A stretch of DNA of 64,000 nucleotides from Marispirochaeta sp. (GTDB lineage: Bacteria; Spirochaetota; Spirochaetia; JC444; Marispirochaetaceae). The DNA lies in NCBI GenBank assembly GCA_963676835.2, contig CAXXFF010000001.1, positions 32,001-96,000 of the forward strand, written 5' to 3'. The first letter of the stretch is position 1. Each line of letters begins with the position of its first letter. The position numbers were made by a program. Shown here piece by piece: positions 39,001 through 48,000 of this stretch.

Positions 39001-42000
39001 AGCATCTGAGAGTTTTAAGAGATCTGTTCTGGTAAGAAATACATATCCGGGTTCATGTCTGCAGCAGCTGGAACAGCCGGTACATTCAAAACGAAGACCA
39101 TTTACATAGAACGGTTCCGTACTCACATAAACCTCCCGGCACAATCGCCTAAAAGTTACTTTAAGGTACCTCAAAAACTACTGTTTGAGAATTCATGTAA
39201 ATAAAAAAAGGCTCTCCAGCTGTACAGCTTTGGAGAGCCTTTTTGGGGAGAGAAGGATTCGAACCTTCGAAGGCTGAGCCAACAGATTTACAGTCTGCCC
39301 CCTTTGGCCACTCGGGAACCTCCCCAGGTAGGCAGGATATTAACAAAGCCTGTAAAACATGTCAATAAGTTTTATTTAAAAACTCTGCCTGCATCCACAA
39401 TTAAACTCTGTCCGGTAATACTGTCGTTTTTCACGAACATAACAACCGCATCGGTTACATCATCTTTGTCTGCGGCACGCTTTAAAACACTTAAATCAAC
39501 AGAGCTTTTTCTGTGAGAGTCGGTCAGATTTCCGGTCATTCTGGTCCCTTCCATAAGTCCCGGCGCTACATCGTTTACCAGGATGTTATCCGGCGCAAGA
39601 CCGACTGCAAGACAGCGGGACAGGTGCTGAAGCCCTGCTTTGGAAACAGAGTATGCAATGCTGCTGGAATTGGGAATATTACCACCAATGGATGAAATGG
39701 TAACGATACGCCCTCCTCCCCTTTTTTTCATATAAGAAGCAGCCTGCCGTGCTGCGACATAGGGAGAAAGAAGGTTGAAATGGAGAATATACTCAAACTT
39801 TTCCGGTGTAAGTGTTTCCAGATCGGAAAATGCAATCGCCTCGTTATAGGCAGCATCAAGAACAAGAATATCAATACCGCCGAATGCATCGGCTGCCGCC
39901 TTGAGCATGGAAGCTGTGCCTTCTTCGCTGGTAACATCCGCCTGAGTGATGATAGCCTCTGCACCCATGGCTTTAATTTCCGCCAGATAGCCTTCGGCCT
40001 TCTCTTTTGAACGGCCGTAAACCATGCACAGTTTAGCTCCCTCTTCAGCAAGACGTCGGCAGATTCTCCAGCCGAGTCCGCCTGTGGCTCCTGTGACCAC
40101 TGCAACCTTATCTTTAATATCCATAGTAACTCCTTGTCAGCTGTAATACGTTTAATGCGATATTGCTGTCATTCTATTTCATTATGGCTATGGTGAAAAG
40201 ATGCTATAGCAATACTTTCCTCTTTTGAACTTTAAACTTTTGCGGGAAAACGAAAAAAACCCTGCAGCATGAGAGCCTGCAGGGTTTAAATAAAACATGT
40301 ACGAAACAGAGCAGAATTCTCAACTCAAGTTAAAGACCTTCTCTGCTGTTCCTGCAAAGCACATTTCCAGAGCATCGTCGGAGAGCCCGATTGCCCGGTA
40401 TTTTGCAAGTTCCACAGGAACATTCGCAAGCAGATCCGACCCGAACATCATTCTGTCCGGTCCGACTCCGCCTACCATAGCTTTAAGATCGTAAACGGTA
40501 GCCCAGCTGGTTTCCAGATATACATTGCTGCATTCCTGAGCAACGATAACTGCTTCTGATCCGAAAACACCGCCTCCGGAATGTGCCATAACAATGGTAA
40601 GATCCGGGTACTTTCGCGCCACCGGGATTATCAGTGACGGCAGCGCAACCGGCATTCCGGTGCCGGTATGTATCATAACCGGCACACCCAGCTCCAGGGC
40701 TGTTCGGTAAATCTTATCCGCCCCGGGATGGGTTGGGGCCATACAGAAGGCATAAGGCTGCAGCTTTAGTGCAACAAATCCAAGATCATTCACTGCCCAA
40801 CGCACCGATTCGATATAACTCTTCTCGTCCATATAGGGGTTGAAACAGGTCAGGCCATAGGCCCGGCCGGGATTGTCATCCACAAAACGTTTAATACGTT
40901 CATGGGCTTTTACCGGATCATTGGTAACCATTCCGGGCTGAACAATCTGGGCTGTGAGGCCGTTTTCCTCCATTGACTTCAGCAGCTCCTGTTCCGTATC
41001 GTCCGTAAGAAACATAAGATCCTCACCAAGGTGCATATGGGCATCGATAATCTTCATAATTCTATGCTACTCCTGTTTCGCCTTCTTCTCTAACTTACCC
41101 TGTTTTCCTATTTTTCCATTGCGGGAAATACGTTTTCGATGAGGGTATCCATGGAAGCTTCAACTGTTTCCTTGGTTACCAGGAATGTGGGTACACTGAC
41201 TTTTTTGGCAGGAGTCTTCCCGTTCAGGTAATCAACTGCTGCACGCAGTGCTTCACGTCCCATGAGTACACCCTGCTGTATTGCCATGGCACCAACTTTT
41301 CCGTCTTTCATGGCACCGATGGATTCGGGGCTGCCGTCAAAACCGGCAAGAACCATTTCGTTAGTCCGCCCGACATTCTCGATTGCAACCATGGCTCCGA
41401 GAGTTCCTTCATCGTATCCGGTAAAAATACCGCGCAGATTCGGGTGTGCTACGAGCAGATCCTGAGCATACTTCATTGCTTCCGCCCGGGTATAGTTCTT
41501 GGCTTCAAGTACAGCAACAACCTTGGAACCGGCTTTTTCTACTGCATCTTTCATTCCCGCAAGACGATCTTTTCCGTTCTGTCTGGTAAGAGAGATATTG
41601 ATCATGGCCACATCGCCGCCTTTCCAGCCATTGGCTTCCATCTGCTGCGCGATGTATTCACCGGCAGCATTAGCTCCGCCGTAGTTATCGGAGATAACAA
41701 AAGAGACATACTCACCGGAATCAGTTCCGATATCGCAGACAACCACAGGGACATTGGCTTGTGCAGCAAGCTCAAGAACCGGAGGACATGATGCACTGTC
41801 AGTGGGAGAAATGATAATAGCATCAACACCCGCGGTGATCAGGTCCTGAACATTCTTAAGCTGAGTAGACGCGCTGTTACGGGAATCTGAATCGATAATC
41901 TTCACACCAAGTTTATCTGCTTCAGCATGAATACCGCCGGCCAGATCCCGCCAGAACGGAATATCCAGGCCGGGAGTCACATAAGCGATCCGGGTCTGGC

Positions 42001-45000: not shown

Positions 45001-48000
45001 ATAAGGATGCCCGGCATTGGTGGTATAGACCTTCTGGAACAGATCCGCGGAAATCATCCGGATACAGGTATAATTGTAATTTCCGGTTTCGCCACAGTTG
45101 AACATGCGGTTAAAGCCATGAAATACGGCGCCATAAATCTTCTTACCAAACCACTTAAGATATCAACCTTACTGATTGAAATTCAGCAGTTTTTCAGCAG
45201 CAGAATTATCCGGTCAAAAGTGAGCGATGAAAACTCCATAGTAACGGCGGACCCTGCGGTAAATAGTATAGTTTCCCAGGTTAAAGTTGCCGCATCCACG
45301 CCGGCACCGGTACTTATTCAGGGTGAAAGCGGAACCGGCAAGGAACTTATTGCAGAAATGCTGCACCGGCACAGCAAGCGCGCCGCAAACCCGCTTACAA
45401 AAATCAATTGTGCAGCCATTCCTGAACACCTTCTCGAAAGTGAACTGTTCGGCTACGAAAAAGGGGCATTTACCGACGCGAAAGAGAAGAAAACCGGACT
45501 GCTTGAGTATGCAGACAAGGGAACTGTGTTTCTTGATGAAATCGGTGATATGAGCATTCACACCCAGGCAAAAATGCTGAGAGTACTTCAGGATAAGCAG
45601 TTTACCCGGGTTGGCGGAATTCACCCCATACAGAGTGACTTCAGGATCATTGCCGCTACCAATAAAAATCTCAAAGAAGAGGTTGCCAGAGGCAACTTCC
45701 GCAAAGATCTTTATTACCGACTCACGGTAGTAGAGATCAATATGCCGCCCTTGCGTGAACGATCCGGAGATATACTGCTTCTGGTAAATCACTTTATTAA
45801 ATATTTCAACAGCGTATACGAAAAAAACATACTCAACATAGGCCCCCGGGCACAGAAGGCTCTTGAGCAGCATATCTGGCCGGGAAACATACGGGAGCTT
45901 AAAAACGTCGTGGAACGGGCGGTTATTTTCAGCCCGGGGAACACTATTGATTTATCATGCCTGCCGGAACAATACCGGAGCATATTCAGCTCACCGGAAA
46001 CAGAGGAGTTCTCAAACCGTTACGATTCTGTCAGCAGAGAGATAATTATGGATGCCCTCTCCCGCTCCAATGGAGTCCGTCAGGAAGCGGCCAGACTTCT
46101 GCATATAAGCCGTAAAACGCTGTACAACCGTATGCGCAGACTTAATATACAATGAACAGGTCTGCCCCCACAGCCAATACGCCTCTGCTGAAAATGCGCA
46201 ATATTCATGTTTCCTATGGCTCTTTAAAGGCCTTGAACGGTGTGGACTTCGACCTCTACCGTGGAGAAATCCATGCACTTATGGGCGAGCACAGAGCAGG
46301 AAAATCCACCCTGGTAAAACTGCTCTCCGGCGCAGAAAAACGCGATCGGGGGGAAATATTCATAAAAGGTAAATCCTGCGGTCATCTTAGTCCGGAAAGC
46401 TCCATGAAGCATGGCATCGGCATTGTTTATCAGAATCTGATGGTCATACCGGATTTGAATACAATAGAGAATATCTTTTCTCCCAACCTGAAGATCAACA
46501 GATTCGGTCTCCTTGATCAACAGTCAATGCTCAAGACTACTGCATCCCTGCTGGAACGTCTGGACTGCCGTTTTGACTGCAGGATACCCCTTAACCGTCT
46601 GACAGTTGGTAATCAGCTTATGGTTGAGTTTGCCAGGGCACTTCGTATCAATCCTGCTATCCTGATTCTGGATGAAATTTCCAACAAGCTGACACCCCAG
46701 GAAATGAAAAGTGTCTACCGTATAATGTTTGATCTGAAACACAGCGGCACCAGCATTATCTACATCAGCCACGATATGGATGAGATTCAGCGAATTGCAG
46801 ACCGGGTCACAATTCTTAAAAACGGATACCGCAGAGAAACCGAAATGGTCCGCAACCTCAGTCAATTGCGACTGGTACAGATGACATATTCCTTTTCTGC
46901 AAAACAGGAAAGGCTTGATCAGCATGATGAAAGTTTTGCCCAGGTTAAAAAACATTTTGAAAGTGTCATACAGGACTTCCCCGCTGGAATTCTTCTAATC
47001 GATAGACAGAAAAAAGTTCAGCTTATGAATTTTGAAGCGGTGAATATAATCGGCCTTCCTCAAAAAAGATTTGAAGATTTTCCCATCTCCGATCTTTCCT
47101 TTCTGCGTGAACCGATGCTTTCGCAACTGATAGAGGCGATAGACAATCAGGAGCAGTGGTCTTCCGGTGAAACAGAAACAAGTGATGGTAAAAATCTCAG
47201 CCTGAAAACTTTTCCTATTCGCAACGATGAACAGCAGTTTATAGGAACTACCCTCCTCATTCAGGACGAATCTCTGACAAAATGTATTGATGACTACCTG
47301 ATTCAGACCGAGAAAATGGCCTCGGTTGCAGAAGTTGCGGTGGGGGTGGCCCATGAAATTAATAACCCTCTCTGCATAATCCAGAATTACATAGAGTTAA
47401 TACGGGGAAGAAACAGCGACGATGACACGTTGTTAAAAATAAGCAAGATAGAAAACGAACTGGAGCGTATAGTATCCATAATTTCCAGTCTTCTTTCGTT
47501 CAGCAGGATACAGGCACTGCCGGGAAACATGATTGATGTTGGTTCGGTATTGAATGAGGTACTGCTCCTGCTGGGCCATTCCCTGAATGACAAGCGGGTT
47601 GAGTTAGAGTGGAAACCACCCAGGACCGCCTACTATGTCGCAGGCAATGAGAATAAACTGAAACAGGTATTTATGAACCTTATTATGAACAGTCTTGAAG
47701 CAGTCCTGGATAGCGGCAGAATTGAGGTCAGGATTAAAAGTTCCAGAAGCAATGAATTCGTGGATATATTTATTCAGGACACTGGAGCCGGTATTCCCGA
47801 AGAAATTGCTGAAAACATTTTTAATCCGTTTTATACCACGAAAATAAGCAGAAAAAACAGCGGCTTAGGGCTGTCGATATGCAGGCATATAGTTGAGGAG
47901 CATAAGGGAACAATAGGCTTTAAAAGCACCCCGGGAGAATCTACGGTTTTTACTGTGAGGTTGCCTCTGGCGAGAACCTCTTAACTGCCTGGAAACTCAG

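Follow-up and report, generated by a model that had tools for sequence, protein, structure and literature searches.

Gene organization of the locus

The window, which is the whole stretch of 64,000 nucleotides of Marispirochaeta sp. DNA that was analysed, carries a soluble histidine kinase and its response regulator on one strand and a CUT2-type sugar importer on the other. The five genes reported in the genome-wide survey's note were all confirmed at their places, and so were the kinase–regulator operon (regulator stop and kinase start overlap, ATGA) and its head-to-head position relative to the importer. The features are listed below.

39372–40124, minus strand: short-chain dehydrogenase, outside the range covered by the survey's note
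40320–41057, minus strand: Amidohydro_2 enzyme
41108–42085, minus strand: RbsB-like sugar-binding protein
42145–43125, minus strand: RbsC-type permease (BPD_transp_2)
43097–44644, minus strand: RbsA-type ATPase with two nucleotide-binding domains (NBDs)
44645–44660, minus strand: sigma54 −24/−12 promoter box TGGCA-N8-TGCA, facing the importer operon
44748–44763, no strand assigned: putative enhancer site 2, 32 bp from site 1
44780–44795, no strand assigned: putative enhancer site 1, a GGG-N10-CCC palindrome
44842–46155, plus strand: NtrC-type sigma54 response regulator (REC, AAA+ with GAFTDA, Fis HTH)
46152–47984, plus strand: soluble histidine kinase NBD-PAS-HisKA-HATPase, 610 aa, predicted phospho-His401 in HEINNP
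46179–46895, plus strand: ABC NBD input domain of the kinase, aa 10–248
46935–47279, plus strand: PAS domain of the kinase, aa about 262–376, varying in sequence across the kinase family

The sequences show that the NtrC-type regulator and the kinase form a coupled pair. The regulator, whose likelier start is the ATG at 44842, combines REC, an AAA+ domain with a GAFTGA-type loop and a Fis HTH with a sigma54 promoter, and rpoN is present in the genome. Translation of the ATPase probably begins at the TTG at 44608, which follows a GGGAGAG ribosome site; the longer version is disfavored because it would begin upstream of where transcription is expected to start. The sugar-binding protein is characterized only by its resemblance to ribose-binding protein. 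The Amidohydro_2 gene, which accompanies the same importer in loci L111 and L112, is probably a catabolic gene of the importer operon, and the short-chain dehydrogenase is probably its last gene. No solved relative of the amidohydrolase was found.

Domain architecture of the kinase

Pfam identified ABC_tran (residues 28–176), HisKA (398–455) and HATPase_c (498–607) in the kinase, and a PAS match (268–367) scored slightly below the cut-off. The AlphaFold model (pLDDT 83) agrees with the survey's description of a soluble kinase with an N-terminal NBD and a PAS-like linker, and consists of the NBD, a flexible linker (247–259), a PAS fold, a long helix leading into the DHp helix and a CA domain. 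The features of class I HisKA kinases are present, with His401 in HEINNP and intact N, G1, F and G2 boxes. No membrane segment was found in the 610 residues (top 19-residue hydropathy 1.35), and only 3 of 138 family representatives have a hydropathy of at least 1.9. A frameshift or chance fusion was ruled out, as the kinase is a single open frame in many genomes.

Origin and specific traits of the NBD

The NBD of the kinase contains the Walker A motif GEHRAGKST, Q94, DE174-175 and H207, and is derived from the first NBD (NBD1) of RbsA-type ATPases. It is nearer to NBD1 than to NBD2 in 49 of 49 loci, and in a tree with NBD2 as outgroup the kinase NBDs form one clade (support 99) nested inside NBD1. 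A recent copy of the neighboring ATPase was ruled out, as the kinase NBDs form a separate clade; a missing half of a split ATPase was ruled out as well, as single-NBD neighbors keep an intact Walker A and LSGGQ. The 41% identity to the first half of RbsA given in the survey's note holds for the best RbsA-type proteins of other organisms (39–43%) but not for the neighbor's NBD1 (34%). Against the RbsA NCBIfam the NBD scores 188 bits (cut-off 745), and instead of the two fused NBDs of this type the kinase has a single NBD followed by the PAS-kinase part.

The signature LTVGNQ had been regarded as a new degeneration, which did not hold: a non-canonical signature is inherited from RbsA-type NBD1, the neighbor's own NBD1 reads LSVAEQ, and canonical SGG occurs in 0 of 77 ordinary NBD1s. 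Walker A had been described as kept, which is correct for the core but not for position 47, where His stands in place of the invariant Asn. Among 139 diverse members, the Walker A core is kept in 133, the Walker B DE in 121, the Q-loop in 106 and the H-loop in 87, its His being missing from 52. His47 is found in 97 of them and Asn47 in 5, the D-loop Pro in 4, SGG in none, Y/F246 in 133 and D/E237 in 124. Asn47 and the D-loop Pro (GENGAGKS and DEP) are present in 100% of 49 neighbor NBD1s. A family-specific His, and in one subfamily an Arg, lies beside the phosphates. The C-terminal segment, with its family motif around D237/L241/Y246, is the only region of the NBD that is more conserved than in the transporters (ratio 1.11 versus 0.73 overall). 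On sequence grounds, the Walker A Asn-to-His change, the loss of the D-loop Pro and the new C-terminal motif are family-specific traits of one clade. This family-specific conservation and the single origin support the NBD as a purpose-evolved, non-motor input domain.

Distribution of the kinase family

At a match threshold of E ≤ 1e-75, the fusion occurs in 41 of 201 genomes of the class (33 of 151 of good quality), and a single genome can carry as many as 8 copies. The family is also found outside Spirochaetia, with fusions in Actinomycetota and Chloroflexota, its hosts are sugar-fermenting anaerobes, and the best 150 matches contain more than 130 clusters at 50% identity. A scan of a genome collection with a single protein gave 1 full-length match among 80 loci, the others being ordinary ATPases; of 79 loci from a metagenome scan, 11 were fusions, and the 68 non-fusion loci formed the control kinase set. 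With 4–5 candidates scored per genome, a depth at which distant fusions could be missed, the fusion was found in 0 of 301 genomes from the phylum of G570, and in the phylum of G573, 18 of 251 genomes had a match to just one half. Among 1405 matching plasmid records, none covers 80% of the query. Our literature search returned no description of the NBD-PAS-HisKA-HATPase architecture and no characterized kinase with an ABC nucleotide-binding domain as input.

Importer linkage and sigma54 output

For 79 of the 84 long-flanked loci, an RbsC-type permease lies within 6.5 kb of the kinase; among the control kinases this held for 1 of 68 loci, by a weak match. One more locus has a nucleoside-type CUT2 system and four have no importer, so that the importer neighbor, which the survey's note gave for 14 of 14 loci, is not universal. 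Three of them (L273, L279 and L280) face a sigma54-driven operon of dehydrogenase and glycyl-radical-enzyme genes, and the fourth (L241) adjoins arabinose genes. Several loci encode single-NBD homodimeric ATPases with intact LSGGQ. In L295, the kinase, permease and binding protein are intact and the ATPase is missing, its orthologue being absent from that genome (best match 47% versus 67–69% in sisters); this is a single case, in which the AAA+ domain of the regulator and the sigma54 box are lost too, and the locus may be decaying. The histories of kinases and importers are largely uncoupled (NBD–permease rho 0.20), with similar importers found next to distant kinases and conversely.

A sigma54 box directed towards the importer was identified in 59 of 65 divergent loci (40 of 42 and 19 of 23) and in 17 of 22 downstream same-strand cases; on the opposite strand there were 0, with about 2.4 expected in all. 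Within the Marispirochaeta genome, only 1 of 12 CUT2-type clusters has such a box, namely the kinase-linked one. No enhancer motif common to the family emerged; GGG-N10-CCC fits only 10 of 40 loci. The conserved −24/−12 box and the tandem enhancer-like palindromes now lend good support to the survey's proposal that importer expression is set by the sigma54 regulator, and the kinase and regulator very probably turn on the neighboring sugar importer.

A possible receptor made of importer components

The kinase has neither a membrane segment nor another outside sensor, which favors a model where the importer's own permease and binding protein would serve as its receptor. The kinase homodimer would offer two NBDs, matching the two coupling helices of the permease dimer, and would stand in for the RbsA motor on some of the permease dimers. 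The NBD may still bind ATP via the P-loop and Walker B, but is predicted to be unable to form the normal catalytic sandwich, with no signature, no D-loop Pro and Asn47 replaced. Docking of the sugar-loaded binding protein outside would change the shape of the permease and move the NBDs, the new C-terminal helix motif would relay this movement through the PAS to the DHp helix, and the phosphorylated regulator would switch on the importer and the enzymes. Docking of the NBD on the permease is plausible because the stoichiometry fits and one locus (L295) lacks the ATPase. We consider the chances evenly balanced that the kinase dimer takes the motor's place on the permease dimer and acts as a receptor, as part of a circuit through which the substrate induces a CUT2 monosaccharide importer. 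Just short of even, in our estimate, is the wider reading of a class of sugar receptors made from ABC importer parts, where two disabled motor domains would clip onto the permease dimer instead of the ATPase, the binding protein and permease would form a transmembrane receptor, the ABC mechanics would run in reverse from the outside to the phosphorelay, and the motor would be dispensable in some lineages (L295).

The EAA loop of the permease shows weak co-variation with the predicted permease-facing groove (partial r 0.16, p 0.003, versus 0.03 for the rest of the NBD; 76 loci), and the groove converges weakly with the neighbor's NBD1 (z 1.7; 41 loci); the p values overstate the significance, as the loci are related to one another. 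Against docking, the groove is not preferentially conserved (ratios 0.51–0.80 versus 0.73 overall); correlation with the EAA loop is higher for N-terminal windows of the NBD (0.26) and for the transporter's own groove (0.28); and the PAS is as closely tied to the binding protein (r 0.17) as the groove is to the permease. The largely uncoupled histories of kinases and importers and the H-loop His missing from 52 of 139 members also count against the receptor model, and the four loci without an importer argue that a need for the transporter in signaling may not be general.

These PAS data bear on a second, rather unlikely explanation, in which specificity would come from the PAS, as the intracellular binding site for the imported sugar or a derivative of it, and the NBD would be a modulator or anchor (an ATP gate, or a generic tether to CUT2 permeases) and not the connection to a receptor. 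After controls, distances between PAS domains follow those between binding proteins (r 0.17, p 0.003, a value that overstates the significance for the same reason; 0.22 in another analysis), the four importer-less loci nonetheless face catabolic genes, and kinases reshuffle among importers. The account in PMC7096432 provides a precedent, as the PAS of the transporter-fused kinase CbrA binds histidine there with a Kd of about 43 uM. However, in 12 pairs of distant kinases with similar importers, PAS likeness was 0.231 versus a matched background of 0.249, and the groove was slightly more alike (0.357 versus 0.308). Furthermore, the PAS positions conserved across the family look structural, and a PAS-bound sugar leaves unexplained both L295 and a CUT2-derived NBD under its own constraints in every member. 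If true, it would still be a regulatory role for an ABC domain not described before.

A free metabolic sensor in the cytoplasm, in which the paired NBDs of a kinase dimer would clamp ATP or a sugar-phosphate/nucleotide between them and make no transporter contact, is improbable. The P-loop and Walker B are the best kept parts, the family-specific His/Arg lies beside the phosphates and the groove is not specially conserved, as such a sensor would have it; yet sensing of ATP levels would lack sugar specificity, with up to 8 copies per genome beside different importers, and the degraded parts are the signature and D-loop, which the ABC head-to-tail sandwich requires. A true flux sensor, in which the kinase NBD would pair in trans with the RbsA-type NBD2 and its intact LSGGNQ and would report the catalytic cycle of the ATPase, is very unlikely: the NBD1 origin and kept Walker A/B would complement the intact NBD2 signature as outlined in PMC11466899, and NBD and NBD2 correlate weakly (r 0.12), but NBD1 and NBD2 are covalently linked in one chain and the site is occupied, several loci have the single-NBD ATPases with intact LSGGQ, L295 has no ATPase, and the D-loop that would touch the partner NBD is altered.

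For the receptor model, the transport activity that the survey's note had the kinase read is less apt than the state of a motor-less permease/binding-protein complex. Docking, if true, would make the kinase a minimal soluble reporter of ABC-importer conformation and kinase reading of transporter states directly testable, and would also inform on CUT2 importers, for which we found no solved permease.

Comparison with known systems

In E. coli, the ABC ATPase subunit MalK connects transporter state with transcription through MalT; unlike the kinase NBD, MalK is a working motor that sequesters the activator, and a phosphorelay is absent. In the PstSCAB-PhoU-PhoR/PhoB system of E. coli, as outlined in PMC12351708 and PMC6978683, the importer state controls the kinase via an NBD (PstB) and the kinase PAS, and the regulator controls the importer genes. 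The Pst NBD is a working motor, PhoU a separate bridge and PhoR membrane-bound. The present kinase, by contrast, is soluble and has a second, altered NBD fused to its PAS, its partner is a sigma54 activator, and no PhoU-like gene was noticed beside the kinase–regulator pair. Docking, if true, would be a covalent short-cut of the PstB-PhoU-PhoR chain. BceAB-BceS/BceR, as far as PMC6978683 and PMC11109136 describe it, likewise has a kinase without its own outside sensor, an adjoining ABC transporter as co-sensor and feedback on the transporter genes. However, BceS is membrane-bound and has no NBD, its two membrane helices are absent from the present kinase (top hydropathy 1.35), and BceAB is a peptide-resistance transporter rather than a binding-protein importer. 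The trait common to the Pst and Bce co-sensor systems, linkage of the kinase genes to an ABC transporter that they regulate, is found here (79/84 loci; sigma54 boxes).

The SLC5-STAC kinases CbrA, CrbS and RpuS, in the account of PMC7096432, also join a transporter-derived domain to a PAS and kinase. They carry an entire membrane symporter together with STAC, neither of which gave a Pfam match in our kinase; the present kinase instead carries half of an ABC motor, which is soluble and would rely on a membrane component supplied in trans. The NBD1s of the CUT2 double-NBD ATPases RbsA, AlsA, AraG, YtfR and XylG, as presented in PMC11466899, share the fold, Walker A/B core, Q-loop and non-canonical signature with the kinase NBD, which differs in having no NBD2, Asn47 changed to His, the D-loop Pro lost and the C-terminal MVGR changed to a [TA]-Y motif. 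The AtoS label carried by the kinase family in databases is a misnomer: the kinase scores 233 bits against the AtoS NCBIfam (cut-off 646) and has no membrane or periplasmic part. The AtoS/AtoC and NtrB/NtrC-type pairs, which are the best NCBIfam matches, share the PAS-HisKA-HATPase core and the REC-AAA+-Fis regulator.

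Gene cluster and architecture of the NBD-kinase

The NBD-kinase, a predicted soluble histidine kinase, is encoded in a cluster with a CUT2 sugar importer and a regulator (coordinates count along the window, whose position 1 is position 32,001 of contig CAXXFF010000001.1).

39372-40124, minus strand, short-chain dehydrogenase
40320-41057, minus strand, amidohydrolase
41108-42085, minus strand, sugar-binding protein
42145-43125, minus strand, RbsC-type permease
43097-44644, minus strand, double-NBD ATPase
44645-44660, minus strand, sigma54 -24/-12 box, kept in the relatives' loci L111-L114
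44842-46155, plus strand, NtrC-type regulator, its stop overlapping the kinase start
46152-47984, plus strand, NBD-kinase, 610 aa

Pfam assigns ABC_tran (residues 28-176), HisKA and HATPase_c to the NBD-kinase, with a PAS match at 268-367 slightly below the cut-off, and no membrane segment was found in it. In its AlphaFold model (121 sequences, pLDDT 83) the NBD is complete and is joined by a low-confidence linker (247-259) to a PAS fold, after which comes the kinase core. In a fold search the NBD and kinase parts were each matched separately, with no solved chain combining both among the matches listed. The Marispirochaeta genome carries 1 such fusion against 10 double-NBD ATPases. Immediately 3' of the kinase, a 302-aa protein with a weak DnaB_C match (48021-48929, minus) is missing at the sister locus L111. 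A WYL-WCX domain regulator (49172-50167, plus) and, after it, a small ORF judged PIN-like by its sequence (50558-50950) lie in a lower-GC stretch and form a possible variable island. Elsewhere in the window, 33244-37500 (minus) encodes a 1418-aa protein that, judged by its sequence, looks secreted and has many WDG/SPNGDG repeat units and an OmpA-like C-terminal end.

Linkage to importers and sigma54 promoters

We examined 126 kinase loci (one duplicate dropped), which are not independent because the set contains sister genomes. Long flanks are available for 84. In 79 of these an RbsC-type permease lies no more than 6.5 kb from the kinase (54 divergent and 4 convergent; on the same strand, 14 downstream and 7 upstream), and 1 has a Bmp-type nucleoside CUT2 system; the neighbourhood described in the genome-wide survey's note thus holds for these and fails at the 4 loci without an importer. 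Of 68 control loci with ordinary kinases, 35 of them 10 kb or longer, 1 gave a weak permease match. The regulator lies immediately upstream in 78 of the first 86 kinases, and 7 of the other 8 are at contig ends. At L246:2251-9592 the kinase lacks an adjacent regulator and has as neighbours a methyl-accepting chemotaxis protein and a CUT2 importer with a single NBD; at L117:3349-18005 there are 2 regulator-kinase pairs placed back to back, and a separate CUT2 importer accompanies each; and at L253:1991-2983 a lone permease, 50% identical to the operon permease and 70% to that of L143, converges on the kinase gene.

Boxes matching at least 9 of 12 positions of the sigma54 -24/-12 consensus face the importer at 40 of 42 divergent loci, at 19 of 23 further divergent loci and at 17 of 22 downstream same-strand cases, a group in which a LacI gene was mistaken for a binding protein at least once. 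None was found on the opposite strand in the loci scored, and shuffles predicted about 2.4 in all. The genome possesses rpoN, and only 1 of its 12 CUT2-type clusters, the one described here, has a box. Upstream of the window's box, at distances of 103 and 135 bp, are two GGG-N10-CCC palindromes; in 40 loci this word turns up 12 times, spread over 10 of them, where 0.6 occurrences would be expected. The best-supported reading is that the regulator-kinase pair activates the importer operon, and the survey's proposal that the sigma54 regulator sets importer expression is well supported by the boxes and palindromes.

Origin and divergence of the kinase NBD

The kinase NBD is nearer to the first (NBD1) than to the second (NBD2) domain of the adjoining ATPase at 49 of 49 loci. 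All 52 kinase NBDs form a single group against 72 transporter NBDs (FastTree 99), and 23 of them, among which are importer-less loci and KSB3-labelled proteins, form one clade within NBD1 in a tree rooted on NBD2 (SH-aLRT 99). The adjoining NBD1 has the signature LSVAEQ. Since the kinase NBD is nested in NBD1, its non-canonical signature is inherited, rather than a kinase-specific degeneration as earlier supposed. A passage of PMC11466899 likewise gives RbsA one degenerate site.

Motifs were counted in 139 diverse NBD-kinases and compared with 49 neighbour NBD1s. Of the 139, 133 retain the Walker A core, 121 the Walker B DE, 106 the Q-loop and 87 the H-loop; 69 retain all four. The survey's note called Walker A kept, which holds for the core, but the Walker A Asn, invariant in NBD1s, is His in 97 kinases and Asn in 5; in the nearer subfamily (113 proteins) about 98% read GEHRAGKS. 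The D-loop Pro, also invariant in NBD1s, is left in 4 of 139, and the NBD has gained a new C-terminal motif, in which 124 carry D/E237 and 133 carry Y/F246. Relative to identity among NBD1s, that among kinase NBDs has a ratio of 0.73 overall; the ratio drops to about 0.5 at the A-loop, at the tail of the Q-loop and at the signature, and rises to 1.11 in the C-terminal segment. These patterns suggest a domain that would still bind ATP, has probably lost motor function and may present a new output surface to the PAS.

Possible modes of sensing

The reading we favour, at about even confidence, is that the two NBDs of a kinase dimer would occupy the permease dimer in the motor's place and read docking of the binding protein. 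The NBD, ATP-bound but non-cycling, would relay the movement to His401 by way of the C-terminal motif and PAS; importer and catabolic genes would then be induced by the regulator. What the sequences establish is how the protein is built, where its NBD came from, which motifs have changed, its linkage to neighbouring genes and the promoter; all physical contacts, binding of ATP, the ligand and the direction of control are inferred.

Co-variation was measured in 76 cassettes, the 79 complete ones less 3 near-duplicates, after 12 duplicate, broken or ambiguous loci had been left out. The predicted permease-facing groove, placed at residues 55-62 and 84-112 by the MalK structure, has a partial r of 0.16 with the permease EAA loop (p 0.003, inflated by kinship), against 0.03 for the remainder of the NBD and 0.28 for the transporter's own groove; N-terminal NBD windows reach 0.26, above the groove. 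The groove is slightly nearer to its own neighbour's NBD1 than to shuffled partners (z 1.7, p 0.046; 41 of 75 dereplicated loci); among the 12 regions compared in these loci, helix 104-112 gives z 2.7. Where distant kinases stand beside similar importers (12 pairs), grooves are a little more alike than the matched background (0.357 vs 0.308). Together these sequence comparisons, all inflated by kinship, lend docking weak support. Against it, the groove is not preferentially conserved, importers 61% identical to the window's stand beside kinases only 31% identical, and kinases 57% identical stand beside permeases less than 40% identical. A search for a solved CUT2 permease for interface mapping gave 0 sequence matches and weak fold matches, to type II importers only.

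A less probable account is that the PAS binds the sugar inside the cell, for which a portion of PMC7096432 offers CbrA as precedent. PAS and binding protein correlate at r 0.17 in the 76 cassettes (a 52-locus version gave 0.22, and 0.11 for groove and EAA loop), and in the same 12 pairs the PAS is not more alike. At L273:8121-16916, L279:8618-17391 and L280:1979-10783, no importer occurs within the 19 kb fetched; the pair faces, with strong sigma54 boxes, two zinc dehydrogenases and a glycyl-radical (PFL-like) enzyme with its activase, its opposite flank carries a DJ-1/PfpI gene, and the canonical Walker A Asn is back (GENGCGKS). The kinase of importer-less L241 adjoins arabinose genes. These four loci either rely on an importer encoded elsewhere or sense intracellularly. 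That the kinase is a free nucleotide sensor seems improbable, and pairing of its NBD with NBD2 of RbsA more improbable still.

L295:8735-13341, a single case among 79, bears on permease docking. In this 98% complete genome the kinase, permease and binding protein are intact, while the ATPase gene and the sigma54 box have been lost and the regulator, stripped of its AAA+ domain, is a 219-aa REC-Fis HTH protein; 3 sister loci retain all parts. The ATPase orthologue is missing from the genome (best match 47% vs 67-69% in sisters). The locus has the make-up expected of a motor-less receptor but may instead be decaying.

Distribution and relation to known systems

Within the class, 41 of 201 genomes (33 of 151 good-quality ones) have NBD-kinase matches at E<=1e-75, as do 14 of 401 in a phylum-wide sample that takes in other classes, with at most 8 copies per genome. 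Among the best 150 matches to 50%-identity representatives, 138 are full length (580-650 aa). Source labels include Marispirochaeta aestuarii, Sphaerochaetaceae, Ca. Vecturithrix granuli, Ca. Moduliflexus flocculans, Desulfomarina and Spartobacteria, and the family is therefore not limited to spirochaetes. No fusion was found among 301 genomes from the phylum of genome G570 or 251 from that of G573, in scans that scored few candidates for each genome.

The kinase would work like PstSCAB-PhoU-PhoR (as outlined in part of PMC12351708) and BceAB-BceS (parts of PMC6978683 and PMC11109136) but belongs to neither, nor to the SLC5-STAC kinases, AtoS or the RbsA family. The architecture was not found described in the literature searched, which excluded subscription-only domain censuses, and the main-text portion seen of the KSB3 genome paper (PMC4312070) does not mention ABC. 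The input module is real and conserved, a variant on a known theme and apparently undescribed. As leads, the ESM Atlas lists clusters with ABC_tran and HisKA, 2 of them Spirochaetota-led and 2 longer ones from Actinomycetota, one with GAF; the Actinomycetota ABC_tran-GAF-HisKA proteins (about 830-850 aa) would represent a second architecture.
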